Source of the DNA: a virus
DNA: 64,000 nucleotides
Direction: 5' to 3' (one strand)
Virus record (IMG/VR): IMGVR_UViG_3300027659_000015
Coordinates: 32,001 to 96,000 of that record
Positions 7,001-60,349 of this stretch are shown piece by piece; the stretch's first letter is position 1, and each line of letters starts with the position of its first letter. Under the pieces are notes generated by a model. The model saw only the letters and a program-made list of their open reading frames with translations, was not told the origin of the DNA and ran no database searches. The position numbers and the translations under genes were made by a program.

Positions 7001-10000
7001 ACATTGCTGGTTTGGAAAGCAGAATTAACAATATTCAATACTATGCATCTTTAAATTTGTTGGAACAGAAAGCAAGTTCATTACAAATCTCCGATGCATA
7101 TGGTTTAAACAGATTCAAGAACGGTATACTTGTTGACGATTTCTCAAGTTTTGCTACGGCAGATACTTTGAATGGTGACTACTATGCGACTATCAATCGC
7201 CGTGACCGCTTAATGACTGCTTCACAAAATGTTAAAAACTTTCAATTGAAATCTTTAGCTACAGCATATAACATGAATCAAATGGATTCTTCCATTTCTT
7301 TGGGTTATAATATTAGTACAGATGGTAATGTTAATTACTATACATTGCCATACACAACATCAAATGTAATTACACAAAAATTTGCTTCACGGACAGTTAA
7401 TGTAAATCCATTCTCTTTTTCAGTAATTGATGGTACAATTTCGTTGTCACCAAATATTGATAATTGGGTTGATACAACTTATTCTCCATCATTGTTAATT
7501 ACTGATCCAAATTTACAGGTGTTCCAAGCAGGTTCAACAAACAACATATTACAATACGGAGATTGGAAAGCAATTACTGGTGTACCAAGTGTTGTGAATA
7601 CTCAATTGACGGATCGTGGAAGAAATTGGGAAACATATACACAAACAACTTCCGTTTACATGAACCAAACAAATGTGATGGGTTCATATGATAAGATTGG
7701 TAACACATATTCATTGAATAACGGATATATTCAAGATATTTCTGTTTTGCCATATATCAGACCACAACAGATTGTTTCACGTGCAAAAGGTATGTTGATT
7801 AATGCAGCAGTAAATTACTATTTTGATGGTACAAATGTAAATAATTATATTCGTAAAGGAAACATTATCGAATTGATAGGTGTTTCTGGTACTTTCAAAG
7901 AAGGTGATATTATTGGTTATTACACAAGTGGTACATTTACACCAACAGCTAGGATTTTAGGTTTATTTAATAAAACTGCAACGACAACAAGATTGTATGT
8001 TGCTGCTGATCCATATACACAAAATTACACAACAAATGGTGTGATACAAAACGGATTCTTTAATGCTTCTGGTGTGTACACATCAACGACAGCAACTGGT
8101 ACTGTTTCAAGTCAATCACATTTTGGTGGTAGAATTAATGGCAGTTCCAATTCAACAACTATCACATTAAGCAATTTAGCTTCAACTTCCGATAATTATT
8201 ATAACGGAAATACAATTTACATTTGTGATGGAACTGGTGTCGGTTCTTCTGCTACTATTACAGGTTATCAAGGTTCAACAAGAGTTGCTACTTTAGCAAC
8301 AGGCATCACATTATCGGTTGATGATATCTATTCTATTGGTGGATTCAGTACTGATGAAACTGGTTCAACTTATGGTGTATTCAACTTACCAGAAAACACT
8401 TTCCACAATGGTCAAAGAACACTACGAATTGATAATAGGGTCAATGGTAATTTAGGTACAGAAACAACTTTTGCTGAAGGTGTTTATTATGCCGAAGGTT
8501 TGCAAACTAAGGCGCAGCAGATAGACTTTGGTGCTTCTCCGGCTGGTGCAAAGAACACCTTCTATAAAACTGGTGATCCAAAATTAGTACAAACGAATGT
8601 TACATCTTGGACAAATAGATGGGATCCTGTTGCACAAACGTTTATTGTTGATAAGGATAACTTTCCTAATGGATTGTTCTTAGACTCAGCAACATTCTTC
8701 TTCTCTAATAAACCAACTGGCGACAATTCACCAATTACATTATCAATTGTTGGAACACAAAATGGATATCCAAATGGTGATACACTCGACCATTCTGTTG
8801 TAACTTTGACACCAATATCGGTAAAAACATCATCATCTCCACAATATTTGGATAGTACCGCTGCAACAAAATTCAAATTCTCTGCACCAGTTTATATTCA
8901 ACCAGGTGTATTATATGCATTCATGTTGAAATCTAATTCAAATCAATATGAGTTGTGGTCAACTTCTAATGGAGATAAAGCATTATCATCTTCAGTTAAA
9001 AACTTGCCAACCGATCCAGCACCGTCAATCATTACTAAGATTGGTTCGGCACCATACGTTGGTGGTCTATTCATTTCACAAAATGCACAGACATGGACAG
9101 CAGATCAAAATCAAAGTTTAATGTTTGTTGTAGACCGTTGTGTGTTTAATACAACTGCTACACCAACAATTCAACACATTGTACCAAACAAATTGCCACA
9201 AAGAACTTTGATTGACCAAAGTATTAGATACTATCAAAATGCTAATGGTGTTTCCGGTACAACAGAAACAATCAGTTCAACTGATGTATTGGTAGACGCA
9301 TTTAATGTTACAACCACAGACTTTACTCCGTCTTCCACTTCAATCACTTATTCATATAATGCCACTTTACTTAATGGTACGGCAGCTGGAACAACATACA
9401 TAAATCCAGGTAAATATGGCACACCAACAAATGATGACATTTATTTGACTGATGGTAAAGGTGAGCGAATTTTGGTTGCAAACTCCAATACATCATTCTC
9501 ATTGTATACAGTATTGAATACAACATCTGACCATGTTAGTCCTGTAATTTCTGATGCTGGTTTATCAGTATTTGCAATTCAATGGAATATTAATAATGCA
9601 GAATTGTCTAATTCTGTTATAACATTAGCCAACACCGGTACAGGTTATAACGCATACACAACTACTGTAACAATTTCACCACCGAAAGATCCTAATGGTT
9701 CACAAGCTTATGCATCAGCAAATGTTGTTTCAGGTAATATTCAATCTGTTTACATAACAACTGCTGGTTCTGGTTATATTACGACACCTACAATTACAAT
9801 TACGGATGCTAATAATATTCCTGGTACAGGCGCAACAGCAATCATTACAGGTGAAACATCTAAGAATGGTGGCAATGTACTCGCTAAATATGTCACCAAG
9901 AAAGTTGTTTTGGATCCAACATTTGACTCCGGTGACCTGAATGTTTATCTAACTGCATATCGTCCAGTAAATACAGATATTCATGTGTATTACAAGGTTC

Positions 10001-10302
10001 TAAACAGAAATGATACACAGAAGTTTGATGACAGTTCATGGCAATTAATGACCAAAATTAATAACTCTGGTTCATTATTTTCTCAAGCAAGAAGTGATAC
10101 TTATGAATATGTGTTTGCTCCAGGAAATGCTGGTGTCGACCAAGGTTATGTAACTTATACAAGTACAACAGGACAAATATACACCTCATTTAGTCAATTT
10201 GCTGTCAAAGTTGTTTTGACTAGTTCCGACCATACGTATTCACCATTTGTAAATGATTTACGTGTGATTGCTTTACCTGCGAACGTTAATACTTCAGTAT
10301 AA
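4048..10302 (+). CDS. Large virion structural protein, VrlC/DUF4815 type
   Basis: Starts NFNVDPWYDDFDQTKNFHRILFKPGRAVQARELTQAQTILQDQI; contains APGADRY, KRYTMQDI, RFKNGILVDDF and WDPVAQTF motifs; position after gp8 matches aquatic T4-like phages. Confidence 0.85.
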   Translation: MAKNFNVDPWYDDFDQTKNFHRILFKPGRAVQARELTQAQTILQDQITKFADNIFKQNSPVTGGEVTTNFGCYYVKLQPTYNNAAIDITQFDGILVRNTTGNVVARVISYVAATGTDPDTLILAYTSGQQFQNGDVIYEAVNGLLAAQAITSAATGESSVASISQGVFYVLGNFVQISPSTVVLDPYDSTPTKRVGLTITETTYDYVDDNSLLDPAAGATNYQAPGADRYVIALKLDIRNIALGDDNDFIELVRVEDGVVSKMVNGSVYNVIDDYFAKRDYETNGDYIVDDYKLTPRTNTDLDKYTLTVGKGLSYVHGYRMENPTNVDLVSNRARTTKFQNNNPVYIDYGTYFYVDTVRGGAAGSFFDVTTAQAVDFHCVTSSNVRTTNTATYSSTVVATGYIRNFAYDYNTSDADANTYVYKAFVNDIQNAVATANVVSATANTIKLPGTFSQSNTSYVGVNVTITNGTSSGDFRTITSYDGATRIATVNQNWTVIPDTTSVFAFNFDIKDIDTIVYADKTSYPASIKSYANINNASGRIGGVSTGATILKNPGAPELIYNIGAPYVASMVDASYNTQHLNRGVVFNASGGVVAQVQITYSDSYSGVIQHFGSAGGYLSADVIKQNFLIVVTNAVSPCTLSVGQVVPLSYLGGTILISNDLSTATLSIPVSAVGGTFTAVVLEKVFVSNADNTSHFLKYKNLITADTSVIKTNGTNINGQYFVDDASLTSTGQIYIQNPGLVSPGLKQTLYLSDVKNIVKIIDTKGAGYIPTLGMLTNPSYDVTKNYSFDNGQRDSYYDHASITLIPGAPQPKGNLLVFVNYYQHAGGDGYFALSSYLNSQKPESYKNILSYVSKNGTTYPLRDSLDFRPSRINATTTFQFNYNSVVNRYGIFIPTDLSTFRTDYSYYLGRKDKLILTKDRTFEIIEGAPSVNPLIPSEPDGSLVIANITHVPYTGYIPTESPNGTLSDLSIEKVKHKRYTMQDIAGLESRINNIQYYASLNLLEQKASSLQISDAYGLNRFKNGILVDDFSSFATADTLNGDYYATINRRDRLMTASQNVKNFQLKSLATAYNMNQMDSSISLGYNISTDGNVNYYTLPYTTSNVITQKFASRTVNVNPFSFSVIDGTISLSPNIDNWVDTTYSPSLLITDPNLQVFQAGSTNNILQYGDWKAITGVPSVVNTQLTDRGRNWETYTQTTSVYMNQTNVMGSYDKIGNTYSLNNGYIQDISVLPYIRPQQIVSRAKGMLINAAVNYYFDGTNVNNYIRKGNIIELIGVSGTFKEGDIIGYYTSGTFTPTARILGLFNKTATTTRLYVAADPYTQNYTTNGVIQNGFFNASGVYTSTTATGTVSSQSHFGGRINGSSNSTTITLSNLASTSDNYYNGNTIYICDGTGVGSSATITGYQGSTRVATLATGITLSVDDIYSIGGFSTDETGSTYGVFNLPENTFHNGQRTLRIDNRVNGNLGTETTFAEGVYYAEGLQTKAQQIDFGASPAGAKNTFYKTGDPKLVQTNVTSWTNRWDPVAQTFIVDKDNFPNGLFLDSATFFFSNKPTGDNSPITLSIVGTQNGYPNGDTLDHSVVTLTPISVKTSSSPQYLDSTAATKFKFSAPVYIQPGVLYAFMLKSNSNQYELWSTSNGDKALSSSVKNLPTDPAPSIITKIGSAPYVGGLFISQNAQTWTADQNQSLMFVVDRCVFNTTATPTIQHIVPNKLPQRTLIDQSIRYYQNANGVSGTTETISSTDVLVDAFNVTTTDFTPSSTSITYSYNATLLNGTAAGTTYINPGKYGTPTNDDIYLTDGKGERILVANSNTSFSLYTVLNTTSDHVSPVISDAGLSVFAIQWNINNAELSNSVITLANTGTGYNAYTTTVTISPPKDPNGSQAYASANVVSGNIQSVYITTAGSGYITTPTITITDANNIPGTGATAIITGETSKNGGNVLAKYVTKKVVLDPTFDSGDLNVYLTAYRPVNTDIHVYYKVLNRNDTQKFDDSSWQLMTKINNSGSLFSQARSDTYEYVFAPGNAGVDQGYVTYTSTTGQIYTSFSQFAVKVVLTSSDHTYSPFVNDLRVIALPANVNTSV

Positions 10303-21886: not shown

Positions 21887-24800
21887 ATGTCTACACAGTT
21901 ACAATTTAGAAGAGGTAATACGACACAGACAAGTGCCTTCACGGGTGCTGTGGCCGAAATTACCGTCAACACGGACAATTATAGCATTGTTGTACATGAT
22001 GGAAATACTCCTGGTGGTTTCCAGGTATCAACGGCAGCACAAGGTGCAGCTACTTTAAGTATCGCTACTGGTGCTTTCACCAAAGCCAATGCGGCTTTTG
22101 AAGCAGCCAATAATGTGGCACCACAAATTGCACCGGCTTTTAATACTGCCAATTCGGCAGGTATCTATGCTAACGGTGCCTTTACACAAGCAAATGCTTC
22201 TTATGGTCAATCAAATTCTGCTGCATCATATGCCAACTCAGCATTCACGGCAGCCAATACTGCTGATAGTAAAGCAGTTACTTCTGGTTCATATGCTAAT
22301 TCCGCTTTAACGGCAGCCAATACGGCAGAGTCAAAAGCGATAACAGCAGGATTATATGCCAACTCAGCTTTCACAGCAGCCAATACTGCTGATAGTAAAG
22401 CAGTAACAGCCGGCAGTTATGCCAACTCAGCGTTCAATACGGCTAATTCAGCATTTGATGTAGCTAATTCAGCAAGTATCTATGCTAACGGTTCTTTCAA
22501 TCAAGCCAATGCTTCATATGGCCAAGCAAACTCTGCTTCGTCATATGCTAATGCTGCTTTCTCTACGGCAAATTCTAAATTTAATTCATCTGGCGGTACA
22601 ATATCAGGTGACACACTCGTTGCTGGTAATCTAACTGTTACAGGTACAACATTCTATGCTAATACAGTAAACTTATTAGTAAAAGATAATATCATTACAT
22701 TAAATTCTAATGTAACTGGTACACCAACACAAGATTCTGGTATTGAAGTTAATCGTGGCAATCAAACAAACACAGCTTTGATATGGAGTGAATCTAAGAA
22801 ATACTGGCAGTTCACTAATGATGGTACGAACTATAGTAATATAGCTGCTTCATCAGCAGAATCATACGCTAACTCAGCATTCATTAAATCTAATTCATCA
22901 TATGGTCAGGCCAATTCAGCATCATTATATGCTAATGGAGCCTTTGAACAGGCTAATGCAGCATTTGCATCAGCTAATAATGTAGCACCACAAGTTGCAC
23001 CAGCATTTAGTACTGCAAATTCGGCTGCCTTGTATGCTAATAGTGCATTTGTCCAGGCCAATGCTTCATATGAAAAGGCAAACTCAGCTGGCATTTATGC
23101 TAATGGTTCTTTCATACAATCAAATTCTTCTTTTGGTACTGCCAATTCTGCGGCAAGTTACGCTAACTCAGCCTTCTTAGCAGCCAACACAGCAGATAGT
23201 AAAGCAGTAACAGCTGGTAGTTATGCTAATTCATCTTTCTTGGCCGCAAATACTGCTGATTCCAAGGCAGTAACAGCAGGTTCGTATGCTAACTCATCTT
23301 TCTTAGCAGCAAATACGGCAGATAGTAAAGCAATAAGTGCTGGCAGTTATGCTAACTCAGCATTTATAGCAGCCAATATAGCTGACAATAAGGCGGTAAC
23401 GACAGGTATATACGCCAACTCAGCCTTCTTAGCAGCCAATACGGCAGATTCAAAGGCAGTAAATGCCGGATCATATGCTAACTCAGCCTTTACATCAGCT
23501 AATACAGCAGACAGCAAGGCAGTAACAGCAGGATTATATGCTAACTCAGCATTCACGGCAGCCAATACGGCAGATTCAAAGGCAGTAACAGCAGGTTCTT
23601 ATGCTAACTCAGCCTTTACAGCAGCTAATACGGCAGATTCAAAGGCAGTAACAGCAGGTTCTTATGCTAACTCAGCATACACTCAGGCAAATACTGCCAC
23701 CACTAATGCAGCAACTGCTGATTCTAAAGCAGTAACATCAGGTAGTTATGCTAATTCAGCATTCACAGCAGCTAATACGGCAGATTCAAAGGCAGTAACA
23801 GCAGGTTCTTATGCTAACTCAGCCTTTACAGCAGCTAATACGGCTGATTCTAAAGCTGTTTCTGCTGGTACATATGCTAACTCTGCATATGCTCGTGCTA
23901 ATAATAGTATCAATGCAAATACTGGTGGTACAATTACCGCAGATTTGATTATTACTGGTAACTTAACAGTTCAAGGTAATACGACTTATGTTAATACACA
24001 AACAATCGCCACACAAGACTCGTTAATTCGTCTTGCTAATAATAATACTATTGGTGATACAGTTGATATTGGTATTTACGGTGCATATAATCCTGGTGGT
24101 GGTGTAAAGTATACCGGTCTTGTTAGACAAGCTGGTGCAAATTATTTCTTATTTCAAAATTTAACTACTGACCCAACCGCAAACGTATTATCTCCGGGGT
24201 CATTGACTGCTGCTAACACAGGCACATTGACTGCCAATTTAACATCGTATGCTGTTTCAATTAATGGTATTGATGTTGAAACAAATCAAACTAGAATTTT
24301 TACACAAGCAAATTCAGCATTTGCAACTGCTAATTCTGCTGGTGTTTATGCCAACTCTGCCTTTACTGCAGCTAATATATCAGACTCTAAGGCAGTTACG
24401 GCTGGCAATTATGCCAACTCGGCATTCACGGCAGCCAATACTGCTGATAGTAAAGCAGTTTCTGCTGGTTCATATGCCAACTCAGGATATATTCAAGCAA
24501 ATACGGCTACTACCAATGCAGCAACGGCTGATAGCAAAGCAGTAACAGCTGGTTCATATGCCAATTCAGCATTTGGTGTTGCTAATACTGCTGTAAGCAA
24601 TGCAGCTGGTGCTTCTCTGTATGCTAATGGCGCTTTCAGTCAAGCAAATGCCGCTTACGCAGCAGCTAATGCAGCAGGATCTAGTGCAACAGTTGTTGCT
24701 GCCTTCATACAAGCAAACTCGGCATTTGGTACGGCAAACTCAGCAGCACTCTATGCTAATGCTGCGTTCTTAGCAGCCAACAATTCTTCAGATTCTTGGG

Positions 24801-25867
24801 TTAGAGGTCAAGCAAATGCGGCCTTCATACAAGCCAATGCAGCATTCGCAGTAGCCAATTCTGGTTCAGGATCAGCATCATCTGGTGTGTATGCTAACGG
24901 TGCTTTTGCTCAAGCCAATGCAGCATTCAATAAGGCAAATACACTTACAACTACCGGTTATGTTGATGCGTTTACCGCTGATGGTGCCAACAGTAGTTTC
25001 GTATTGTCAACGATACCGGCTAATAAGAATGTAACCTTTGTTGCTGTACAAGGTGTCTTACAACCTAAATCAACATACAGTTTAACTGGTTCTACATTAA
25101 CATTTGATTCGATTCCACCCAATACTGCTATTATTGAAGTTACAACTCTAGTAACAACTGGTGGTAGTAATGCTGGTGGTGCAGGAAATATAACATACAG
25201 AAGTTATACAGGTAATAATACAACATCAAGTTTTACCGTAACTTCTGGTATGACCGCCAACACAATATTCGTGGCAGAAAACGGTATTCTACAAAGACCA
25301 GGTACAGATTATACAGTATCAGGTACAACTCTAACATTCAATACAACTCCAGCTACTGATGTTGATATTCAAGTCCGTGAATTGTCATTAGGTGGTGATC
25401 CAAGTTTTGCTTTTGATGCAGCTAACTCAGCAGGATTATATGCTAACGCTGCCTTCTTAGCAGCCAATAATGCTTCCGATTCATGGGTCAGAAATCAGGC
25501 GAATGCTGCATTTGGTACGGCTAACTCAGCAGCATCGTATGCTAACTCAGCATTTGCAGCAGCTAATACATCTTCAATTACATGGTCTATTGTAAATACA
25601 AACAGTACAATGGCAGCGAGACAAGGTTATTTTGTTGATACAACAACTGCTCCTATAACAATGACACTACCAACAAGTGCAACACTAGGTGATACTATTC
25701 GTATCAATGATTTGGCGGGAACATTTAGTGCAAATAATTTAACAGTAGCAAGAAATGGTCATAAGATTCAAGGTATTGCTAACGATTTATTAGTGAACGT
25801 AAACCAAAGTAGTTTTGGTTTGGTATACAGTAACAGTACATACGGCTGGAAGGTAATAGAACTATAA
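21887..25867 (+). CDS. Long fibre shaft protein with major-tropism-determinant N-terminal (Mtd_N-like) domain and extensive heptad repeats
   Basis: MSTQLQFRRGNT...FTGAVAEITVNTD...VVHDG.TPGG; ANSAFTAANTADSKAVTAGSY repeats; two beta-sandwich domains; C-terminal GYFVDTT...LTVARNG..IQG...YGW domain. Confidence 0.85.
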   Translation: MSTQLQFRRGNTTQTSAFTGAVAEITVNTDNYSIVVHDGNTPGGFQVSTAAQGAATLSIATGAFTKANAAFEAANNVAPQIAPAFNTANSAGIYANGAFTQANASYGQSNSAASYANSAFTAANTADSKAVTSGSYANSALTAANTAESKAITAGLYANSAFTAANTADSKAVTAGSYANSAFNTANSAFDVANSASIYANGSFNQANASYGQANSASSYANAAFSTANSKFNSSGGTISGDTLVAGNLTVTGTTFYANTVNLLVKDNIITLNSNVTGTPTQDSGIEVNRGNQTNTALIWSESKKYWQFTNDGTNYSNIAASSAESYANSAFIKSNSSYGQANSASLYANGAFEQANAAFASANNVAPQVAPAFSTANSAALYANSAFVQANASYEKANSAGIYANGSFIQSNSSFGTANSAASYANSAFLAANTADSKAVTAGSYANSSFLAANTADSKAVTAGSYANSSFLAANTADSKAISAGSYANSAFIAANIADNKAVTTGIYANSAFLAANTADSKAVNAGSYANSAFTSANTADSKAVTAGLYANSAFTAANTADSKAVTAGSYANSAFTAANTADSKAVTAGSYANSAYTQANTATTNAATADSKAVTSGSYANSAFTAANTADSKAVTAGSYANSAFTAANTADSKAVSAGTYANSAYARANNSINANTGGTITADLIITGNLTVQGNTTYVNTQTIATQDSLIRLANNNTIGDTVDIGIYGAYNPGGGVKYTGLVRQAGANYFLFQNLTTDPTANVLSPGSLTAANTGTLTANLTSYAVSINGIDVETNQTRIFTQANSAFATANSAGVYANSAFTAANISDSKAVTAGNYANSAFTAANTADSKAVSAGSYANSGYIQANTATTNAATADSKAVTAGSYANSAFGVANTAVSNAAGASLYANGAFSQANAAYAAANAAGSSATVVAAFIQANSAFGTANSAALYANAAFLAANNSSDSWVRGQANAAFIQANAAFAVANSGSGSASSGVYANGAFAQANAAFNKANTLTTTGYVDAFTADGANSSFVLSTIPANKNVTFVAVQGVLQPKSTYSLTGSTLTFDSIPPNTAIIEVTTLVTTGGSNAGGAGNITYRSYTGNNTTSSFTVTSGMTANTIFVAENGILQRPGTDYTVSGTTLTFNTTPATDVDIQVRELSLGGDPSFAFDAANSAGLYANAAFLAANNASDSWVRNQANAAFGTANSAASYANSAFAAANTSSITWSIVNTNSTMAARQGYFVDTTTAPITMTLPTSATLGDTIRINDLAGTFSANNLTVARNGHKIQGIANDLLVNVNQSSFGLVYSNSTYGWKVIEL
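23162..23875 (+). repeat. 63-bp (21-aa) tandem repeat array: 10 units plus one 84-bp unit
   Basis: Units encode ANSAFxAANTADSKAVxAGxY; 714 bp = 10x63 + 84; e.g. TACGGCAGATTCAAAGGCAGTAACAGCAGGTTCTTATGCTAACTCAGC at 23566, 23629 and 23776. Confidence 0.9.
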
Positions 25868-28800
25868 TGGCAACGACAAATTTAACGAATTTAAAAGCAA
25901 ATGCTTTTACTGATGTTGTAAGTACAATTGTAAATACAACTAGTATTATATCTACAACTCCAAAAGTTACAAGTATAACTTATCCAGGAAATGATACTGC
26001 GGCTAATACAGGTGGTGGACAAACAATTACATTAACTGGAACAGGATTTAGTTCAGGTGCTTCGATTCTTATCAATGCTACATATGCTGGTGTTGTAACA
26101 GTAGTCAGTAATACAACTATAACATTCACTTCACCAGCACAAAATGCTGGTACTTACACACTATATGTTATTAATTCTGATGGTGGTACAGCCATTTCTA
26201 TTCCTGGTATTAGTTATAGTGGAACACCAACATGGACAACTGCGGCTGGTACTTTAGGAACAAGTTACGAAACTGCTGCAATCAGTAACAGTTTGACTGC
26301 AACTGGTGATCCAACAATCAGTTATAGTTTATATTCAGGTACATTACCACCAGGAAGTTCATTGAATTCTTCAACTGGTTTATTATCTGGAACATCACAA
26401 GCAACAGCTAGTTCCACAACTTATAACTTCACAATTCGTGCTACTGATGGACAGAATCAGGACACAGATAGAGCATTTAGTATTACCATAAGTCCAGATG
26501 TTGTAAGTTGGAGTTCTCCTGCGGATAATTCCAGCACTTCTGTGTATGAATATGCTACAATAACACCAGTCACACTAGCCGCTTCTAGTGCAGCAGGTAA
26601 ATCTATTACATATACAGCGAATACTTTACCAACAGGTTTGACGATAAGTGGTAATACAATTTCTGGAACACCGACTGTAGTTGCTAATACGTTTACACAA
26701 GTTACTGCTAATTCAGCAAACACTTTCAGAACAGCCACTAAAAATATTAGTTTCATTGTTAATCCGGATGTAGTCACTTGGAGTTCACCTGCTGACGGTA
26801 CAAGTACCTCTTTGTTTGCAGATACAGCAATGTCAAATGTTACATTGAGTGCAGCTTCTGCGGCAGGTAAATCAATCACATATAGTGCGAATACTTTACC
26901 AACCGGAGTTACTATTACTGGTGCGGTAGTTAATGGAACACCAACTGTTCCTGGAACAACTAATAGTTTGATTACAGCAACAGCTGCAACGACAAATAGA
27001 ACTGCTACAAGAAACTTTACATGGGTAGTTAGTGTTGCTAACGATACTTACTTTAAATATACCACCTTGTTATTGAACGGTGAAACAACTTCTAATTCAT
27101 TCATTGCTGATGCAAGTACAAATAGTTTTGGATCAAATATTAATGGTGATACAAAACCTGTGTTGTTTAATCCATATCAAGGCGATGGGTATTATAGTAA
27201 TTACTTTGATGGTACCGGGGATTATCTATCGCTATCGTCTGCTATAGTGCCGGCTACTGGTAATTTCACTATTGAATTTTGGATTTATAGCTTGACCAAT
27301 GCAGGCTCAGCCCAACGTGCAGTTTATGCTCAGTATTCAGGTGGCACGAGCGGACGATTTATGTTTGGTCTAGACCAAAGTTCCTCTTCTAGAATTTGGC
27401 TACATTATAATGGTACCGACTACGTTGGAACGACCAATGGCATACTTCCTAATACTTGGACGCATCTTGCTTTAGTAAGAAACGGAGATGTATTCAATAT
27501 GTATGTGAATGGTGCACTGAACGCTACTAACACTTTTGCAGGCGCATCATTACAACAAATTGCTGGCAACATTGGTGGTATGGGTGGCAGTTTTAATGTT
27601 AATGCACAAGTTAGCAACTTACGAATTGTAGTCGGCACCGCAGTCTACACCGCTGCATTCACTCCAAGCACAACACCATTAACAGCGATAGCAAACACAA
27701 GTTTATTAACATGCCAAAGTAATAGATTTATTGATAACTCAACTAACAATTTTGCAATCACTAAAGTAGGTGATACAACAATATCACCCAACATACCATT
27801 CACTGCAAACGCTAGTTACAGCACTTATGGTAGCACATACTTTGATGGTACTGGGGATTATTTAAGTATAGCAAGCAATAGTGCATTTGCTTTTGGAACA
27901 GGTGATTTTACTGTTGAAGGATGGTATTATTCAACTGCCGGAAATGGAAGATTTACTTTATATGATTCTGGTTCAGGTGGCGGAAACGGACAATTTTCTA
28001 TATTCCAAGATAGTGCTTCTGGTTTTTATGTACGCATGGGAGGTGATATAACGTATGCATCTCCTCCAGGAAATAATCAATGGGTTCATTTTGCTGTAAC
28101 AAGATCCGGTACAACTGTAAGATTATTTTTTAATGGAATATTGGCTGTTAGCGGAACTCAATCTACTAATATAACAAACAATACACCGTACATTGGTTTA
28201 TTAAATGGATATGGTTATCCAATGAATGGTTATATTTCTGATTTGAGAGTAGTTAAAGGTACCGCAGTATACACAACAACCTTTACACCACCTACATCAC
28301 CACTAACAGCAATAGCAAACACAAGTTTACTAACACTACAATACAACGGTGGCGCAACTAATCAAGGTATTATAGACAACAGTAATTTCAACAATATTAT
28401 CACACGTAATGGTAACACAAGTCAAGGCACATTTAGTCCTTATAGTGTGACAGGTTGGAGTAATTACTTTGATGGTACAGGCGACTATATTAATGCAGGT
28501 TCGGGTGCATCGGTAAATATGACTGGTGATTTCACAGTTGAAATGTGGATATATGGTACTAATACAAGTTGGACTGGCGGAGATGTAATTGGCGCCACTT
28601 GTTTGGTGGACACAAGAGACCAATCAAACGCTACAGAAAATAATCGACTTGCACTTTCCATGAACAGTACTGGATCATATCCTAGTTTCTATAATGCGGG
28701 AACAAATGTATCAACCGCTTCAACTATTCCAGCTAATGTTGGTGTGTGGAATCATATTGCTTATTCACGCAGTGGTTCTACTATAAAGATTTTTGTAAAT

Positions 28801-30981
28801 GGTGTTCAAGGCGCTAGTTTTACGGATAGTACAGCATTCACGGCTGTAAGATGGGTTATTGGTATGTATGCATCTCAATCAGGTGGTACTAATAATAGAG
28901 GTGGATTTATAGGTTATATTTCCAACCATCGTATAATTAATGGTACTGCACTTTATACAACAGCATTTACCCCACCCACATCACCGTTAACTGCAATATC
29001 TGGTACAAGTTTATTAACTTGCCAATCAAATAGATTTATTGATAAATCAACTAATAATCTTACACTTACTAAAGCAGGTGATGTTTCAGTTCAAGCCTTT
29101 GGTCCATTCGGTGGTATAAGTGAAGCAGTGCCAATAAGTTATAGTAACTACTTTGATGGTACTGGGGATTATTTAACTGTACCGGACAATGTTGTCTTAC
29201 AATTAGGATCTGGTGATTTCACTGTCGAATTTTGGATTAATTATAATTCTATTACGGGATATCAGTCACCTTTCACTAAAGGTTACACCGCCGCAGGTGA
29301 TATCTTGCTTCAAACAGGTAACGGTAACGGAGCACTCATAGTTTATCTGAGTGGATCAGTAGTCATCACAGAATCTACCGGAGCAAGTATCGGGACGTGG
29401 TATCACTATGCATTGGTACGAAGCGGAACAACAGTAACATTATATCGTGATGGAGTGTCACGTGGGACTGCAACCAGTTCAGTCAACTTTAACACTACAA
29501 ATCAATTAGGCATAGGTGCAACAGGCAAAGCACCAGGTGGCGGAGCAATTGGTGATTTCACAATCAACGGATACATGAGTAATTTTCGTGTAGTCAAAGG
29601 TACCGCAGTATACACAACGGCATTCACACCAAGTACAACTCCATTAACAGCGATAGCAAATACAAGTTTATTAACCTGTCAATCAACTAGAATGATTGAT
29701 AATAGTACTAATGCATTTACAATAACTGCTGCCGGCAATGTTGTGCCAAGAATATTCAACCCATTCGGATACACCGCACAGAGTGCAACAAGTTATACCC
29801 CAAGTTTGCATGGTGGTAGTGCATACTTTGATGGTACTGGGGATTATTTAAATATACCATACTCACCATCATTTAATTTTGGGACAGGAAACTTTACTGT
29901 TGAAGGATGGATTTATTTAAACTCACTGGCTTCTAGTTATTATGTAATGGCCGGTACATACACTACAGGAACTACAGACGAATGGCTAATTCAAATTTCT
30001 AACGGAAACACGATTAGATTTTTGACTTCTGTGGGAACTTCTTTTTATTCCGCAACAATAACAACTAGCACTTGGTATCACATTGCCGCTGTTCGAAATG
30101 GGTCAACAATAACTTTATATGTAAATGGTACGAGCGTTGGTAGTTATACCAACTCCAATTCAATTGGTTCTGTATCTAAAGTTTTATACATTGGTGTTCA
30201 AAACATCAGCACTTGGCCAATGAATGGTTACATAGACGACCTAAGAATAACTAATGGTACGGCAATATACACCAGTAACTTTGTACCACCTACAACACCA
30301 TTGACAAACTACTCTACAGCTTATCCTGCAAGTCTATTGTTGAATTTCAATAACGGTGGTATAATAGACCAACATTCTACAAATGTATTAGAGACGGTGA
30401 GTAATGCACAGTTAAGCACTGCGGTTAAGAAGTATGGTAACGCTAGTATGTATTTTGATGGTACCGGGGATTACCTTTATGGGTCTCCAAACCAGACTTT
30501 TAATTTATCAGTAGGTGATTTTACAGTAGAACTTTGGGTATATTTTACCGGCTCTAATAACAGTAGAGGAATATGGGCAGTTGGTAATGCAAGTAGAAGT
30601 GGTGTATGTCTTAATATAAGCGCTACCGGTCGCATTCAAAGTGTGTATGGTGACGGTGTGAACTGTACTTACACAGACGGCACGACTGTTGTACAATTGA
30701 ATACATGGAATCATATTGCTCTTTCTAGAGCTGGGTCTACTAATAGGATGTATCTTAATGGTGTTTTGGAAAATACATTTACATCATCTAATTTTGGAGC
30801 CGGATCATATTCGGGTTATGTTGGAGATGGTTGGGGAATAAGTTCTGGTAATTTAGTCTTTATGTCTGCTGCGGCCTCAGGACCAATTTTAGGATATATA
30901 GATGACTTCAGAATCACTAAAGGATACGCCCGTTACACAAGTAACTTCACCGCCCCAACAAGTGCGTTGATAACCAAGTAA
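25867..30981 (+). CDS. Adhesin A: IPT/TIG and Ig-like domains followed by six LamG/concanavalin-A-like modules
   Basis: GGQTITLTGTGF (IPT), LPPGSSLN/LPTGLTI (putative Ig), six YFDGTGDY...FTxExW...WxHxAxxR...Y/FxNG...RxxxG modules. Confidence 0.85.
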   Translation: MATTNLTNLKANAFTDVVSTIVNTTSIISTTPKVTSITYPGNDTAANTGGGQTITLTGTGFSSGASILINATYAGVVTVVSNTTITFTSPAQNAGTYTLYVINSDGGTAISIPGISYSGTPTWTTAAGTLGTSYETAAISNSLTATGDPTISYSLYSGTLPPGSSLNSSTGLLSGTSQATASSTTYNFTIRATDGQNQDTDRAFSITISPDVVSWSSPADNSSTSVYEYATITPVTLAASSAAGKSITYTANTLPTGLTISGNTISGTPTVVANTFTQVTANSANTFRTATKNISFIVNPDVVTWSSPADGTSTSLFADTAMSNVTLSAASAAGKSITYSANTLPTGVTITGAVVNGTPTVPGTTNSLITATAATTNRTATRNFTWVVSVANDTYFKYTTLLLNGETTSNSFIADASTNSFGSNINGDTKPVLFNPYQGDGYYSNYFDGTGDYLSLSSAIVPATGNFTIEFWIYSLTNAGSAQRAVYAQYSGGTSGRFMFGLDQSSSSRIWLHYNGTDYVGTTNGILPNTWTHLALVRNGDVFNMYVNGALNATNTFAGASLQQIAGNIGGMGGSFNVNAQVSNLRIVVGTAVYTAAFTPSTTPLTAIANTSLLTCQSNRFIDNSTNNFAITKVGDTTISPNIPFTANASYSTYGSTYFDGTGDYLSIASNSAFAFGTGDFTVEGWYYSTAGNGRFTLYDSGSGGGNGQFSIFQDSASGFYVRMGGDITYASPPGNNQWVHFAVTRSGTTVRLFFNGILAVSGTQSTNITNNTPYIGLLNGYGYPMNGYISDLRVVKGTAVYTTTFTPPTSPLTAIANTSLLTLQYNGGATNQGIIDNSNFNNIITRNGNTSQGTFSPYSVTGWSNYFDGTGDYINAGSGASVNMTGDFTVEMWIYGTNTSWTGGDVIGATCLVDTRDQSNATENNRLALSMNSTGSYPSFYNAGTNVSTASTIPANVGVWNHIAYSRSGSTIKIFVNGVQGASFTDSTAFTAVRWVIGMYASQSGGTNNRGGFIGYISNHRIINGTALYTTAFTPPTSPLTAISGTSLLTCQSNRFIDKSTNNLTLTKAGDVSVQAFGPFGGISEAVPISYSNYFDGTGDYLTVPDNVVLQLGSGDFTVEFWINYNSITGYQSPFTKGYTAAGDILLQTGNGNGALIVYLSGSVVITESTGASIGTWYHYALVRSGTTVTLYRDGVSRGTATSSVNFNTTNQLGIGATGKAPGGGAIGDFTINGYMSNFRVVKGTAVYTTAFTPSTTPLTAIANTSLLTCQSTRMIDNSTNAFTITAAGNVVPRIFNPFGYTAQSATSYTPSLHGGSAYFDGTGDYLNIPYSPSFNFGTGNFTVEGWIYLNSLASSYYVMAGTYTTGTTDEWLIQISNGNTIRFLTSVGTSFYSATITTSTWYHIAAVRNGSTITLYVNGTSVGSYTNSNSIGSVSKVLYIGVQNISTWPMNGYIDDLRITNGTAIYTSNFVPPTTPLTNYSTAYPASLLLNFNNGGIIDQHSTNVLETVSNAQLSTAVKKYGNASMYFDGTGDYLYGSPNQTFNLSVGDFTVELWVYFTGSNNSRGIWAVGNASRSGVCLNISATGRIQSVYGDGVNCTYTDGTTVVQLNTWNHIALSRAGSTNRMYLNGVLENTFTSSNFGAGSYSGYVGDGWGISSGNLVFMSAAASGPILGYIDDFRITKGYARYTSNFTAPTSALITK
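27730..27821 (+). repeat. 92-bp exact repeat, copy 1 (copy 2 at 32995-33086), inter-module scaffold
   Basis: ATTGATAACTCAACTAACAATTTTGCAATC...GCTAGTTACAG identical in both adhesin genes. Confidence 0.9.
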
Positions 30982-30999
30982 TACATCTATCATAAATAT
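30910..30999 (+). repeat. 90-bp exact repeat, copy 1 (copy 2 at 36208-36297), covering gene 3' end, stop codon and next late promoter
   Basis: AGAATCACTAAAGGATACGCCCG...ACCAAGTAATACATCTATCATAAATAT identical at both loci. Confidence 0.92.
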
Positions 31000-31029
31000 C
31001 CAGTATCAAACTAAAAAGAAAAATGTGAT

Positions 31030-34000
31030 ATGACTTTAAAAATTTCATCGACTAATATACAAGGTTCAACATTAGATGTACTGACGGCACCTGCAGCTAT
31101 TGCTAATGCTGCCTTTGCAGCTGCTAATGTGGCATCCGCAGCAGCTAATACGGCTGCAGCTGCAGCAAATGTGGCAACCGCAACGGCAACATCAGCATTA
31201 ACAGCAGCAAATACAGCAGTTGCTGCTGCTGCAAATAGTGCACCTAGAGTTTCCTTGATATCATATCCAGGAGATGATACTGCTGCTAATACAGGTGGTG
31301 GACAAACAATCACATTAACAGGAACAGGTTTCGCTTCTGGTGCCACAGTTCTTATCAACGGCACATATGCTGGGGTTGTATCGGTAGCAAACAGTACAAG
31401 TATGTCCTTTGCGGCTCCTACTCAAAGTGCTGGTACATATACGTTGTATGTTATTAATACTGATGGAGGTACTGCTATCTCCATTCCAGGTATCAGTTAT
31501 AGTGGTACACCAAATTGGACAACTGCGGCTGGTAGTTTAGGAACAAGTTACGAAACTGCTGCCATTAGTAGTACACTAACAGCAACTGGTGATGCACCAA
31601 TTACATATAGTTTATACTCAGGTACATTACCACCTGGAAGTTCATTGAATACATCTAGTGGTTTGTTATCAGGAACATCACAAGGTGTTGCAAGTTCAAC
31701 CACTTATAATTTTACCATTCGTGCTACTGATGCACAAAATCAGGACACAGATAGAGCATTCAGTATAACACTCAGTCCAGATGTGGTTACATGGAGTTCT
31801 CCTTCAGACAACTCAACCACGACTGCATATGAATATGCACCTATATCAAATGTAACAATGTCTGCCACATCGGCTGCTGGCAAATCAATTACATATACAG
31901 CGAATACTTTACCGACTGGTGTAACCATAACAGGTAATACAATTTCTGGAACACCTACAGTTGTTGCAAACACAAATACAAGATTAACAGCTAATGCAGC
32001 AACTACACTCAAAACAGCCACAAAAGATATTAACTTTGTGGTTAATCCAGATGTAGTTACTTGGAGTTCACCTGCTGATGGAACTAGCACTGCGTTGTTC
32101 CAAGACCAAGCAATGTCAAATGTAACATTGTCAGCAACATCAGCGGCTGGTAAAAGTATTACATATAGTGCGAATACTTTACCAACCGGAGTTACTATTA
32201 CTGGTGCGGTAGTTAATGGAACACCAACTACTGTGGGTACCACCAACAGTTTGATTACAGCAACAGCAACCACCACCAATCGTACTGCTACCAGAAACTT
32301 TACATGGGTAGTAAGTCTTGCTAATGATATATATTTTAAGAATACAACACTGTTATTAAACGGTGAAACAAGTGTAACACCATTCATTAGTGATATAAGC
32401 ACAAATAGCTTTGGCTTAACTATTCAGGGTGATACAAAACCTACATTGTTTAATCCATATCAAGGTGATGGGTATTATAGTAATTTCTTTGATGGTACTG
32501 GAGATTATTTAAGTGCTGGTTCTAATTCATCATTTGCCGTTGGCACAGGAGACTTTACTTTCCAAGCATGGGTTTATCCAACAGCATATACAAGCCCTGT
32601 ATCGGCAATTTTTGATACTGGTAGCGCCGTAGCATCCGGTAGATTTTCTGTTGTTCTTTATTCGAGTGGGCTAGTCTATGTTGACAGCAATGCAAATCTA
32701 CTTATATCAAGTTCAACGTTACCGTTAAACAAATGGACACTTATTTCTATCATTAGAAGTAGCGGAACAATGACCATGTATTTTAATGGCACTAGTGTGG
32801 CTAGTGGAAGTATTGCAACCAACTTTACTGAGACACAAAGCTATATTGGAAGAACAGTGGACGGCTACTATTTCAACGGTTACATTTCAAATTTGCGCTT
32901 GGTTAAAGGCACTGCACTTGCAAACACCGTACCAACCTCTCCGCTAACAGCAATAGCAAACACAAGTTTATTGACCTGTCAGAGTAATAGGTTAATTGAT
33001 AACTCAACTAACAATTTTGCAATCACTAAAGTAGGTGATACAACAATATCACCCAACATACCATTCACTGCAAACGCTAGTTACAGTACTTATGGTAGTA
33101 CATACTTTGATGGTAGCGGGGATTATTTAACTACTCCTATTACATCAAGCGGGCCGTTAGATTTTGGTAGTGGTAATTGGACAGTAGAAGCATGGGTAAT
33201 GTACACTGGTGCCAGTTTAACAGGAGGATATAGAAACTTTTTAACTTTCTGTAATGACTCTGGCTTACCCTATATACAAATTGGAACAAAAACAAGTAGT
33301 GGTTATGTTTTCGTACAAGAAGGAACACCAGCAACAGTACCTTGGAATGCTGAAGGAACTACGTTATTAACTTCAAACGTTTGGCATCATATTGCCGCAG
33401 TAAGAAACAGCAACAATATTTACTTGTACTTGGATGGAGTATTACAGGGTTCGGTTGCATATAGTGGAACACATCAAACTTTTGCAAAAGTTCAAATCGG
33501 TTCGTTAAAGTATAGCGGATCTATTATACAAGATTGGACCGGGTATATTGCGGATGTTCGTATAGTTAAAGGTACAGCAGTCTATACATCAGCATTTACT
33601 CCACCTACAACACCATTAACCTCAATAGCAAACACAAGTTTACTAACACTACAATACAACGGTGGTGCTACTAATTCAGGTATTATAGATAATAGTAATT
33701 TCAACAACATTATCACAAGATTTGGTAATACTAGTCAAGGCACATTTAGTCCATATAGTCCTACAGGTTGGAGTAATTACTTTGATGGTACTGGGGATTA
33801 TCTAACCATTGCCGGAACAAGCACAGCCTGTGCGTTACCTGGTGATTTCACAATTGAATGTTGGTATTATCAAAATACTTCCTCAGCTTTATTTTACGGA
33901 ACTATTTTTAGTACTACGGCTACATATGCAACAACAAATAGTTTACGCATTTCAACCGGACAAAATAATAATACTATTCAAGTTGCTTCTGGCGGCAGCG

Positions 34001-36279
34001 CAGTTCTTAACGCCAGTGTAACTTTTACTCCCTACACTTGGGTTCACCTTGCACTAGTAAGAAGTGGAACTACATTAACACTATACCAAAATGGAGTTTC
34101 TGTTGGTTCAGCTACAAATTCACAATCATTTGTATCCGACACTTTTATTATTGGAGACACACAGGGGTCCGGAGCACCATATTGTTTTAACGGATATATG
34201 TCTAATTTCCGTGTAGTCAAAGGTACCGCAGTCTACACAACCGCATTCACCCCACCTACATCACCACTAACAGCAATAACAAACACGCAACTATTAACTT
34301 CTCAAAGTAATAGATTAATTGATAATAGTCCGAACAATTTTACATTGGTAAAAGGCGGCGATGTTTCAGTTCAAGCCTTTAGTCCATTCGGTAGCGTAAG
34401 TGAAGCAACACCGTTGAGTTATAGTAATTACTTTGCTGGTGGCGCATCAGATTATCTAACAGTAACTACTGGATCTAGTCAACTTAATTTACCTAGCGAC
34501 TTTACAGTTGAATTGTGGTTTTATGAAACTAATACTACTCCAACAATACCTCGTTTTGCAGGATCAACGTCCGGTGGGTTTGCTTGTGGTATAAATGCGT
34601 ATGATGGTAATGCAACTAGAAAACTAGACTGGCGAGCAACCGGTTCTGCACCAGTATATGGTGTAACTGCAATAACAACAAATGTTTGGCACCATGCCGC
34701 ATATGTTAAATCTGGCTCTACATTTAGAATATTTTTAGATGGAGTATTAGAATATTATAATGGAAGTTATAGTACCACATTTACTAGTAGTGCAACATAT
34801 ATCGGCAGTGCAAATAGCGCAGATGCAGCTTATTCGTTTAGAGGTTACATTTCTAATTTCCGTGTTGTTAAAGGTACGGCTGTTTATACCACCGCCAGTA
34901 CTACTGTAGGTGCAACAATATTTACACCAGGTACCTCACCATTGACCGCTATAGCAAATACTGCATTATTAACTTGTCAATCTACTAGAATAATTGATAA
35001 TAGTACCAATGCATTGACTATGACAGGTACGGGAACCTACACAGTTAACCAGGTCAATCCATTCGGATACACTGCACAGAGTGCAACAAGTTATACCCCA
35101 AGTTTACATGGTGGTAGTGCATACTTTGATGGTACTGGGGATTATATGCAAGCCCCGCTGACACCGTACAATTTTGCTCCTGCTGGTGATTTTACCATTG
35201 AGGCATGGGTATACTTGACCGGTGCGCTGGCCAGCGGCAATTATACAATTGCATCAAACTGGCCATCAGGATCAGTACCCGCCCAGACATTTCAATTTCA
35301 AGTAAACACATCAGGACGCCTGCTATTTTATGCCGGCATTGGAGACACACAAGTGCAAGTAGTAGGAACTTCAACACTTGTGTCAGTAAATGCATGGAAT
35401 CATGTGGCAGTTTCTCGGTCAGGCGCAACCATTAGATTATTTGTAAATGGAACACAAGATTCAACCACTGTCAGCAATGCAGGTGCGCTAAACGTACAAT
35501 CAACATCATATAAACTTGCAATCGGTTGTCGCAATGATTCAGGTGGTTATGCATTTGGATGGAAAGGGTACATAACCGATTTCCGTTTTGTCGGCGGAAC
35601 CGCAGTCTACACTTCAAACTTTTTACCACCAACACAAACATTAACAAACTACTCTACAAGTTATCCATCACAATTATTATTAAACTTTACTAACGGTGGT
35701 ATAATAGATCAACATTCTACAAATGTACTAGAGACTGTGGGTAATGCACAATTAAGTACTGCGGTTAAGAAATATGGTAATGCTAGTATGTACTTTGATG
35801 GTTCTAGTAGAATAACAATACCGGCGTCTCCGCAGTGGATATTTGAAACAGGGGACTTTACCGTTGAGTTTTGGATGAATACTGCGGACACTGGCGCAGG
35901 TTTAATAACTCCTGCAACTACTGGCGCCGGATATTGGGCTTTGTTGATTTATGCAAGCACATTATATTGGCAAAATGCGTATAATTCTTCTAACTTAAAG
36001 ACTGCATCATTATCTGGTTATTTGAACAATACCTGGGCTCATATTGCTATTGTTAGATATTCTGGTAATTTGTATTTTTATTTTAACGGCACTGCACAAG
36101 GTAGTGCTACGGCAGATTCAACCAATTATAGCGGCGCTGTAAATACATTAACTATTGGATACGATCCACAGGGTAATGGATACTATGCTGGTTATATAGA
36201 CGACCTAAGAATCACTAAAGGATACGCCCGTTACACAAGTAACTTCACCGCCCCAACAAGTGCGTTGATAACCAAGTAA
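31030..36279 (+). CDS. Adhesin B: paralogue of adhesin A with six different LamG-like modules
   Basis: Same domain order as 25867..30981 with near-identical linkers; different Ala-rich N-terminus; own TAAATA promoter. Confidence 0.85.
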   Translation: MTLKISSTNIQGSTLDVLTAPAAIANAAFAAANVASAAANTAAAAANVATATATSALTAANTAVAAAANSAPRVSLISYPGDDTAANTGGGQTITLTGTGFASGATVLINGTYAGVVSVANSTSMSFAAPTQSAGTYTLYVINTDGGTAISIPGISYSGTPNWTTAAGSLGTSYETAAISSTLTATGDAPITYSLYSGTLPPGSSLNTSSGLLSGTSQGVASSTTYNFTIRATDAQNQDTDRAFSITLSPDVVTWSSPSDNSTTTAYEYAPISNVTMSATSAAGKSITYTANTLPTGVTITGNTISGTPTVVANTNTRLTANAATTLKTATKDINFVVNPDVVTWSSPADGTSTALFQDQAMSNVTLSATSAAGKSITYSANTLPTGVTITGAVVNGTPTTVGTTNSLITATATTTNRTATRNFTWVVSLANDIYFKNTTLLLNGETSVTPFISDISTNSFGLTIQGDTKPTLFNPYQGDGYYSNFFDGTGDYLSAGSNSSFAVGTGDFTFQAWVYPTAYTSPVSAIFDTGSAVASGRFSVVLYSSGLVYVDSNANLLISSSTLPLNKWTLISIIRSSGTMTMYFNGTSVASGSIATNFTETQSYIGRTVDGYYFNGYISNLRLVKGTALANTVPTSPLTAIANTSLLTCQSNRLIDNSTNNFAITKVGDTTISPNIPFTANASYSTYGSTYFDGSGDYLTTPITSSGPLDFGSGNWTVEAWVMYTGASLTGGYRNFLTFCNDSGLPYIQIGTKTSSGYVFVQEGTPATVPWNAEGTTLLTSNVWHHIAAVRNSNNIYLYLDGVLQGSVAYSGTHQTFAKVQIGSLKYSGSIIQDWTGYIADVRIVKGTAVYTSAFTPPTTPLTSIANTSLLTLQYNGGATNSGIIDNSNFNNIITRFGNTSQGTFSPYSPTGWSNYFDGTGDYLTIAGTSTACALPGDFTIECWYYQNTSSALFYGTIFSTTATYATTNSLRISTGQNNNTIQVASGGSAVLNASVTFTPYTWVHLALVRSGTTLTLYQNGVSVGSATNSQSFVSDTFIIGDTQGSGAPYCFNGYMSNFRVVKGTAVYTTAFTPPTSPLTAITNTQLLTSQSNRLIDNSPNNFTLVKGGDVSVQAFSPFGSVSEATPLSYSNYFAGGASDYLTVTTGSSQLNLPSDFTVELWFYETNTTPTIPRFAGSTSGGFACGINAYDGNATRKLDWRATGSAPVYGVTAITTNVWHHAAYVKSGSTFRIFLDGVLEYYNGSYSTTFTSSATYIGSANSADAAYSFRGYISNFRVVKGTAVYTTASTTVGATIFTPGTSPLTAIANTALLTCQSTRIIDNSTNALTMTGTGTYTVNQVNPFGYTAQSATSYTPSLHGGSAYFDGTGDYMQAPLTPYNFAPAGDFTIEAWVYLTGALASGNYTIASNWPSGSVPAQTFQFQVNTSGRLLFYAGIGDTQVQVVGTSTLVSVNAWNHVAVSRSGATIRLFVNGTQDSTTVSNAGALNVQSTSYKLAIGCRNDSGGYAFGWKGYITDFRFVGGTAVYTSNFLPPTQTLTNYSTSYPSQLLLNFTNGGIIDQHSTNVLETVGNAQLSTAVKKYGNASMYFDGSSRITIPASPQWIFETGDFTVEFWMNTADTGAGLITPATTGAGYWALLIYASTLYWQNAYNSSNLKTASLSGYLNNTWAHIAIVRYSGNLYFYFNGTAQGSATADSTNYSGAVNTLTIGYDPQGNGYYAGYIDDLRITKGYARYTSNFTAPTSALITK

Positions 36280-36319
36280 TACATCTATCATAAATATGGA
36301 ATAATAACCAAAAAGAAAC

Positions 36320-57960: not shown

Positions 57961-58003
57961 GTTTTTATTATGTAAGCTATTGACCTAATTGATTATTTTA
58001 AAT

Positions 58004-60273: not shown

Positions 60274-60298
60274 TATATATCATAGGGGAACACCGAGG

Positions 60299-60327
60299 AC
60301 TATAACACATGTCAAGCCCCTTGTCAA
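60299..60327 (-). promoter_or_regulatory. Antisense sigma70-type promoter upstream of gp55
   Basis: Minus strand reads TTGACA (60327-60322), 17 nt, TATAGT (60304-60299), with extended -10 TGn. Confidence 0.6.
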
Positions 60328-60349
60328 CAACTTTTTATGGTACATTTGA

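Follow-up and report, generated by a model that had tools for sequence, protein, structure and literature searches.

Phage host-recognition proteins are already established to diversify by recombination at conserved motifs, as seen in the T-even proteins gp37 and gp38 and in phage receptor-binding proteins. For the T-even gp37/gp38 adhesins, Trojet et al. 2011 (PMC3157838), citing Tetart et al. 1996 and 1998, describe hypervariable segments located between conserved glycine-rich motifs or His boxes, with exchanges taking place at these motifs. Smug et al. 2023 (PMC10684548) found recent mosaicism to be concentrated in phage tail fibres and spikes, across taxonomic boundaries, and pointed out that homologous-domain swaps and sub-domain recombination escape domain-based methods. 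In pelagimyophages and cyanomyophages, Zaragoza-Solas et al. 2020 (PMC7029224) described a host recognition cluster; this hypervariable island lies in the structural region, ends at the neck gene gp14 and holds tail fibres together with unidentified structural proteins bearing concanavalin A (ConA) and major-tropism-determinant domains. The present work deals with a 64,000-nucleotide stretch of viral DNA, positions 32,001 to 96,000 of the IMG/VR record IMGVR_UViG_3300027659_000015, referred to below as the window, and in particular with two of its genes, A (25867..30981, + strand, 1704 aa) and B (31030..36279, + strand, 1749 aa), in which conserved stretches alternate with twelve highly divergent LamG-like interiors.

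We consider it very likely that A and B are paralogous virion-surface proteins encoded in the host-recognition island of a T4-like myovirus, and that their interiors are exchanged by homologous recombination at the conserved stretches. In the proposed mechanism each protein is made of six ConA/LamG-type jelly-roll units standing on a TIG/Ig stalk, and the DNA of each unit comprises four parts: slot-specific constant N-terminal strands, a 24-nt anchor (coding for YFDGTGDY), a variable interior, and a conserved last strand with the motif GTAVYT. Homologous recombination would swap the DNA lying between the conserved stretches, which recur every ~650 bp and would host the crossovers. The partners could be co-infecting relatives, different slots or the two paralogues, and the exchanged piece could reach from an anchor to GTAVYT (one interior), from one GTAVYT to the next (an entire unit) or over a block of several slots. 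This would yield new combinations of interior types that are old and discrete and form a very large pool in the environment, with a frame that would stay young and patchily homogenised by the same recombination.

The initial annotation of this DNA had assigned six LamG-like modules to each protein, each module starting at a conserved DNA anchor. Pfam indeed gives six Laminin_G_3 (PF13385) stretches in A and six in B, scoring 322.9 and 331.7 bits, respectively (gathering cut-off 27.6), and all twelve anchors were recovered at the coordinates given for them, ten by a 24-mer search and two, which are degenerate, in register. The search, allowing up to 3 mismatches, yields ten sites, all on the + strand, where 0 are expected in 100 shuffles: 27202-27225, 27838-27861, 28465-28488, 29149-29172, 29824-29847 and 30451-30474 in A, and 32485-32508, 33103-33126, 33778-33801 and 35122-35145 in B. 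The degenerate anchors are found at 34429-34452 (YFAGGASDY) and 35791-35814 (YFDGSSRI). As also proposed initially, the modules share an end motif, since R-x-x-x-G-T/Y-A closes all 12 of them. The constant inter-slot segment L1 of A, for example, occupies 27622..27837 (+ strand) and runs from its R-x-x-x-GTA end motif to the next anchor, the R codons of the other end motifs being placed at 28246, 28930, 29587, 30244, 30910, 32896, 33559, 34210, 34861, 35584 and 36208. The interiors delimited in this way are 122-141 aa long.

Codon alignment of A with B, read in 20-codon windows, gives a mosaic pattern in which frame segments of 65-97% nucleotide identity alternate with interiors of 30-55%. The linkers are positionally orthologous, with amino acid identities of 86% (L1), 89% (L2), 71% (L3), 83% (L4), 78% (L5) and 97% (L6), whereas all 66 interior pairs are 24-40% identical and the pairs in equivalent positions are no more similar than the rest, which bears out the alternation of high identity and deep divergence described initially and leaves the interiors without any positional signal. 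Expressed as Nei-Gojobori distances, the frame shows dS 0.70 and dN 0.13, with the N-terminus and L0-L5 fairly even at dS 0.54-0.99 and L6 at 0.17; the interiors show pS 0.62-0.78, i.e. saturation, a dN of 0.88, and many indels. Near-identity of the linkers at the DNA level, which had also been put forward, holds for exact patches only: the 92-bp exact match of 27730..27821 (+ strand, inside L1) to 32995-33086 in B is real, but most of the frame has diverged to a dS of ~0.7. This 92-bp tract looks like a recent gene-conversion patch. A foreign base composition of the interiors was considered and found unsupported, their GC content being 39.5% vs 38.1% in the linkers (Mann-Whitney p = 0.37) and their GC3 24.9 vs 27.4 (p = 0.90); the highest-GC interior is that of B5 (35146-35565), with 45%.

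Exchange of the interiors is supported by data from other phages. The comparison set was built of related loci from IMG/VR and JGI metagenomes, with 120 proteins out of more than 5100 matches in a 5.8-billion-protein set (handles beginning with L or P below); P0002, P0007 and P0009 were compared at the protein level only. Twins at 83-98% amino acid identity exist for eleven of the 12 interiors among other proteins of metagenomic phages, and many of these twins occupy a different slot or frame. In gene A (all slots on the + strand), A1 (27202..27603, interior 27226-27603) is matched by slot 2 of L003, P0003, P0006 and P0007 (91% aa) and of P0024 (97%), A2 (27838..28227) by slot 2 of P0002 (93%) and the fourth LamG unit of P0064 (76%), and A3 (28465..28911) by the third module of the four-module proteins in L008, L009, L010 and L013 (92-93% aa) as well as by slot 1 of P0009 (93%). 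A4 (29149..29568) has twins in P0005 and P0002, slot 4 (93-94%), and copies at 76-83% elsewhere in P0008, P0011, P0036 and P0032, A5 (29824..30225) is found in slot 6 of L003, P0002 and P0010 (98% aa), and for A6 (30451..30891) relatives were found only at 60-63%, in slot 3 of L003, P0005 and P0010. In gene B (also on the + strand), the twins of B1 (32485..32877) are slot 3 of P0009 (98%), slot 3 of P0073 (94%) and the three-module protein L028 (83%), and those of B3 (33778..34191) are slot 2 of P0009 (98%) and of P0029 (94%). B2 (33103..33540) recurs in P0015 after the L2-type linker of that protein (94%) and in L140, which carries L1 plus the B2 interior at 96% nucleotide identity, a pair compared by this identity alone, with a 2-nt length difference that shifts the reading frame. 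B4 (34429..34842) is matched by the sixth LamG unit of P0015 (86%) and slot 4 of P0024 (83%), and B6 (35791..36189) by P0005 and P0007, slot 6 (98%); B5 (35122..35565) is the sole interior for which no twin was found in the set (best 45%).

Read from slot 1 to slot 6, the contents are thus A3, B3, B1, x, x, x in P0009, x, A2, x, A4, x, A5 in P0002, and x, A1, A6-like, x, x, A5 in L003, and the linkers of the proteins bearing these twins keep the order L0-L6, at 75-94% identity to those of the window. This canonical S1-S6 frame is present in ~45 proteins. These alignments show that interiors are independent of the slot they occupy and that some of the transfers are recent: the A5 interior has a dS of 0.00 over 126 codons with slot 6 of L003, and the A3 interior a dS of 0.06 with L008, vs 0.25-0.39 for the frame shared by A and L003, a timing that rules out differential selection. 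Twin pairs have dN/dS ratios of 0.2-0.6, i.e. purifying selection, hence the interiors are stable functional types and not hypermutating sequences. At the scale of the family, an all-vs-all comparison run on a pre-filtered set of 131 non-redundant proteins groups 481 slot-assigned interiors into 348 types at 80% amino acid identity, 268 of them singletons and 80 common to several proteins, 28 of the latter occurring in at least two slot types. Of the 245 twin pairs, 90 join different slots, pairwise interior identities are bimodal (bulk below 50%, small peak above 80%), and the same type is never present twice within one of the 131 proteins. A crude Chao1 estimate gives ~1000 interior types.

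Concerning the location of the crossovers, the constant N-terminal frame of A (25867..27201, + strand), which extends up to the first anchor, is 90.6% identical in nucleotides to L003, and the homology stops at 27228, just past the anchor. Likewise, high-scoring segment pairs (HSPs) between the frame and L003 end at 27228, 27864, 28493, 29851 and 33129, i.e. 2-5 nt past an anchor, and set in again with the G of GTAVYT, at 27634 and 28258, whereas HSPs of the cassettes start at 28465, 29824 and 32487 and fade 40-90 nt past the R codon, in sequence common to all linkers. A survey of 401 units with DNA and 49 twin pairs placed seven of 14 left breakpoints at 0 to -7 nt from the anchor start, representing at least 5 independent events and including pairs unrelated to the window, and the remaining seven at -82 to -207 nt, several of them near the previous GTAVYT, which points to whole-unit exchange. 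On the right side, 16 of 21 breakpoints lie at +52 to +90 nt from the R codon. Larger blocks are also evident, since P0003, P0006 and P0007 have no difference between the N-terminus and the end of slot 4 (100% identity) and only 29-47% identity in slots 5-6, and P0003 and P0010 differ upstream of slot 3 and match at 100% from there to their ends. The anchor is thus a favoured left crossover point but not an exclusive one, with whole-unit and multi-slot block exchanges occurring as well. Taken together with the interior relationships, which are incongruent with the frame, and with the non-uniform dS, the existence of variants that break at the anchors supports the swapping scenario first suggested for these genes, each of the three being the opposite of what had been named in advance as speaking against it. 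As a separate observation, the units at 3163 and 4612 of L182, a 332-kb contig, lie in one open reading frame (ORF) and share 97% identity over 897 nt, an intragenic unit duplication whose left boundary falls near the previous GTAVYT motif.

In order to see what the exchanged piece corresponds to in the folded protein, residues 600-812 of A (213 aa running from a linker, L1, over the anchor and the interior to the end motif) were modelled with AlphaFold2 from a 97-sequence alignment. The model is one compact all-beta domain (pLDDT 89.2, pTM 0.89), in which the linker residues form three strands of the jelly-roll that follows, with block pLDDT values of 91-96. Linker and interior are thus predicted to fold as one jelly-roll, so that the cassette would be a domain interior and the proteins would contain nearly no true linker. 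According to the model, what the constant DNA contributes to each jelly-roll is its opening strands, the strand of the anchor and the closing strand, the ~10 strands in between coming from the variable DNA. The idea that whole lectin domains are swapped at conserved flanks is therefore retained as regards the place of the exchange and amended as regards the piece, which in the model is the interior of a domain and not the whole of it. With breakpoints falling inside the domain, natural chimeric jelly-rolls are viable. By Foldseek, the closest viral models are phage LamG-like jelly-roll tail, baseplate and structural proteins (TMq 0.75-0.85), and the top matches among solved structures are the lectin-like Hc-N subdomains of clostridial (botulinum, tetanus) neurotoxins and NTNHA (TMq 0.60-0.73, 11-19% identity). 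The latter is a generic ConA-like fold likeness only, and the rest of the A and B proteins resembles no toxin.

Four other explanations have to be weighed against exchange of the interiors. According to the first, A and B would be ancient paralogues in which gene conversion homogenised the linkers only, the interiors being immobile. This would account for the exact tracts of 92, 90 and 69 bp present in a frame of dS 0.7, and for the uneven per-segment dS (0.17-0.99). The 90-bp tract (30910..30999, + strand, equal to 36208-36297) extends, in A as in B, from the last codons over the stop to 18 nt beyond it, hence gene B is bracketed by direct repeats. However, immobile interiors leave unexplained both the same interior in different slots and frames and the isogenic proteins that differ only in slots 5-6, and conversion limited to linkers would not preserve position-specific linker identity over ~45 six-slot proteins. 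Taken as a full account, conversion of the frame alone is improbable, and such conversion is better regarded as another side of the recombination that moves the interiors than as an alternative to it. It may be added that in L135, a syntenic relative on a 65-kb contig, a single LamG gene lies between homologues of the fibre gene at 21887 and of the gene at 36320, hence the copy number of the LamG gene varies between relatives.

The mosaics could also have been created by short-read assemblers that joined different phages or slots at repeated motifs. Anchors and end motifs are indeed repeated within each gene, the 92- and 90-bp exact tracts between A and B could mislead a low-k assembly, so that a swap between A and B at these repeats may have occurred in this contig, and no independent replicate of the window was found in the collections searched. 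Nevertheless, exact repeats between non-equivalent slots do not exceed 27 nt, a length below the usual final k-mer sizes of assemblers, and slot orders recur in different assemblies (L003 is equal to L135 and L136, L004 to L007, and L008 to L009, with L013 having the same last two interiors), the P0003 cluster being present on 12 contigs from several sources. Junctions of the window itself recur, namely L1|A2|L2 and L3|A4|L4 in P0002, L1|B2 in L140, and L5|B6|L6 in P0005 and P0007, and twelve mutually unrelated interiors would not be produced by chimeras. An assembly origin of the pattern is, hence, quite improbable.

Still harder to sustain is rapid divergence in place, i.e. that after duplication of the whole gene the interiors diverged in situ by diversifying selection or hypermutation, for example by a diversity-generating retroelement (DGR), under a frame held constant. 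The high interior dN compared with that of the frame would be expected in such a case, and the fibre gene upstream of A carries Mtd_N, a domain first described in a DGR target. Against it, synonymous sites are saturated in the interiors and not in the frame, the interiors differ by numerous indels, near-identical copies (dS 0-0.06) sit in other slots and frames, and twin pairs evolve under the constraint described above. Moreover, the parent IMG/VR record (105.7 kb, judged 63% complete) has no match to the reverse transcriptase family RVT_1 and no template-like second copy of an interior, the highest pairwise identity among its 12 units being 40%. We regard this explanation as very improbable. 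The upstream fibre-like protein (21887-25867, 1326 aa), whose N-terminal Mtd_N domain scores 39.4 bits in this record without reverse transcriptase, looks like a case in which Mtd_N is a structural N-terminal connector rather than a DGR mark.

Finally, programmed high-frequency switching in the manner of a shufflon, an invertase or silent cassettes, driven by a site-specific recombinase of its own, which a short conserved DNA motif repeated at every cassette border and kept against codon usage might evoke, is the least probable of all and can practically be set aside, because the anchors are in-frame direct repeats that all lie on the same strand, neither a Resolvase/invertase nor a Phage_integrase (tyrosine recombinase) match is present in the 105.7-kb record (63% complete), a profile search of the same record returns exactly 12 units, all inside the A and B ORFs, and no silent cassettes, the right breakpoints spread over tens of nt with half of the left ones off the anchor, and the cyanophage homologue is stable in 26 records of cultured isolates. 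The recombinase-free character attributed to the system at the outset agrees with this partial record, where reverse transcriptase, serine recombinase and tyrosine recombinase were all searched for and not found.

The cyanophage homologue also informs on the tempo of interior exchange. Over 6.7 kb of the homologous multi-LamG gene, the 26 records of cultured isolates (24 S-RIM12, 2 Syn33) agree at 99.3% identity or more, which indicates that interiors are exchanged over evolutionary time rather than by rapid switching; no indication of rapid or programmed switching was found. With other cyanophage genera this gene shares only single module-sized patches, of ~700-770 bp, which match S-M1, QB2, P-RSM1 and MbCM1 at 73-76%. 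In Syn33 the homologue (L212, NC_015285 64648-71373) is part of one 19-kb coding sequence annotated as virion structural protein.

Several points weigh against interior exchange in the form proposed here. The stability over the 26 records means that exchange is not frequent on the timescale of that S-RIM12/Syn33 collection, and the half of the mapped left breakpoints that lie away from the anchor show that the anchor is not a strict site. The placement of an A5-type interior in slot 5 is unique to the window, the three other proteins that have this type carrying it in slot 6. The sequences used for comparison all come from metagenomes, as assemblies or as proteins predicted from assemblies, and the label of adhesin given to A and B is a putative one, based on fold and gene neighbourhood.

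It should be noted that the anchor is conserved as DNA beyond what its amino acids require. GGG encodes the second Gly in nine of the 12 anchors, vs 1% of the Gly codons in 16 other genes of the window and 7% over the whole of A and B. TAC is used for the first Tyr in 11 of 12 anchors, and the last Tyr is mostly TAT, the usual Tyr codon of the window (74%). Among 62 YFDGTGDY sites in 29 other loci, the commonest form is the same 24-mer. Codon bias does not account for these choices; they would be explained by conversion events passing repeatedly through the anchor, or by selection acting on the DNA as such. A bolder interpretation would be that the anchor and GTAVYT, beyond any constraint from the fold, are held identical in their DNA, in spite of codon preference, since recombination would use them as docking homology, and that the six-slot frame is an evolved, recombinase-independent combinatorial device that draws on a shared library of ~1000 or more lectin interiors, any of them fitting any slot, to track changing host surface glycans. 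We put this forward tentatively and regard it as rather doubtful in this full form.

The genomic setting is that of the structural region of a T4-like myovirus. The window encodes neck gp13/14-like proteins, gp15, terminase, sheath, tube, portal, scaffold and Gp23 capsid, followed by UvsY (57989-58438), UvsW (58398-59918), a gp47-like nuclease (60905-61978) and a gp46-like SMC ATPase (61975-63693), all four on the + strand, so that the recombination genes mentioned in the initial annotation are indeed present at 57989-63693. The phage's own UvsX/UvsY/UvsW/gp46-47 pathway may perform the recombination, and frequency-dependent selection may maintain the interior pool. The capsid protein is 62-64% identical to those of Methylophilales phage Melnitz, the Pelagibacter phages Mosig and HTVC008M, and cyanomyoviruses. 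From ORF, Pfam and PHROG data, A consists of a TIG domain, three He_PIG Ig-like domains and six LamG/ConA-like units, and its paralogue B has the same architecture plus an Ala-rich N-terminal extension. Their PHROG matches are to virion structural and baseplate families, and both genes are flanked on the two sides by fibre-like genes. Fold and genomic context suggest that the LamG units bind carbohydrate or other ligands, and the interiors may bind host surface glycans and set the specificity of adsorption.

Other features of the region can be mentioned briefly. The N-terminus of B (31030-31240) is a low-complexity extension of ~70 aa, rich in Ala, Thr and Asn, of which ~40 residues are absent from A, and the first ~30 residues of A and B are unrelated. 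On the left side of the fibre island, a 2084-aa protein at 4048-10302 has a strong DUF4815 match (200.6 bits); the pelagimyophage paper puts the baseplate protein VrlC there, a likeness of position only. No family match was obtained for the antisense ORFs 31740-32402 and 26457-26879, which are regarded as chance. A megablast of A and B against 50,697 phage records gave no match.

Comparison with the known systems places A and B closest, in their way of working, to T-even gp38/gp37, which are also T4-superfamily host-recognition proteins with conserved motifs in fixed order between hypervariable segments and exchanges at the motifs. The likeness does not extend to the family, since Pfam and PHROG scans give A and B no gp38 or adhesin match and their fold is a ConA/LamG jelly-roll, nor to the variable unit, which here has 122-141 aa and makes up most of a domain, vs a short loop in gp38. 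The layout of the window is the same as that of the host recognition cluster of PMC7029224, a work that covers the variability of this island at the gene level and not an intragenic slot-and-cassette structure. As for PMC10684548, it is a survey of domain architectures, with 0 occurrences of LamG or lectins, and describes no fixed multi-slot frame with breakpoints inside the domain. With DGR targets, some long ones of which have weak Laminin_G_3 matches, the system shares the focusing of hypervariation on what, from its fold, would be a ligand-binding-type domain of a phage tail protein; it differs from them in showing whole-segment replacements with indels instead of adenine mutagenesis, and in having neither reverse transcriptase nor template repeat in the record (63% complete). 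Unlike shufflon or invertase switching, it has no site-specific recombinase match in that incomplete record and no inverted sites, all anchors being on the + strand, and unlike pilE/pilS or vlsE antigenic variation it has no unexpressed donor cassettes in the 105.7 kb available (63% complete).

A search of the literature on LamG or Laminin_G_3 together with phage recombination returned no account of such a system, and what appears to be undescribed is a LamG frame of six slots, with breakpoints inside the domain, interiors independent of the slot and a pool of this size. If it is true that the interiors bind host glycans, the system would provide a natural guide to the points at which lectin-type binding modules can be cut and rejoined, would make host-range potential readable from metagenomes by cassette typing, and would be a clean system in which to ask whether short conserved DNA motifs are selected for evolvability. 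In contrast to gp38, there are here six slots per gene and two genes, with interiors that move between slots and a pool of hundreds of types. The new form that A and B add to recombination at conserved motifs is thus a fixed, position-specific six-slot frame, kept in dozens of uncultured T4-like phages, and interiors functioning in any slot, of which 348 types were sampled among 481: a tidy natural means of reshuffling parts that are likely involved in host recognition.

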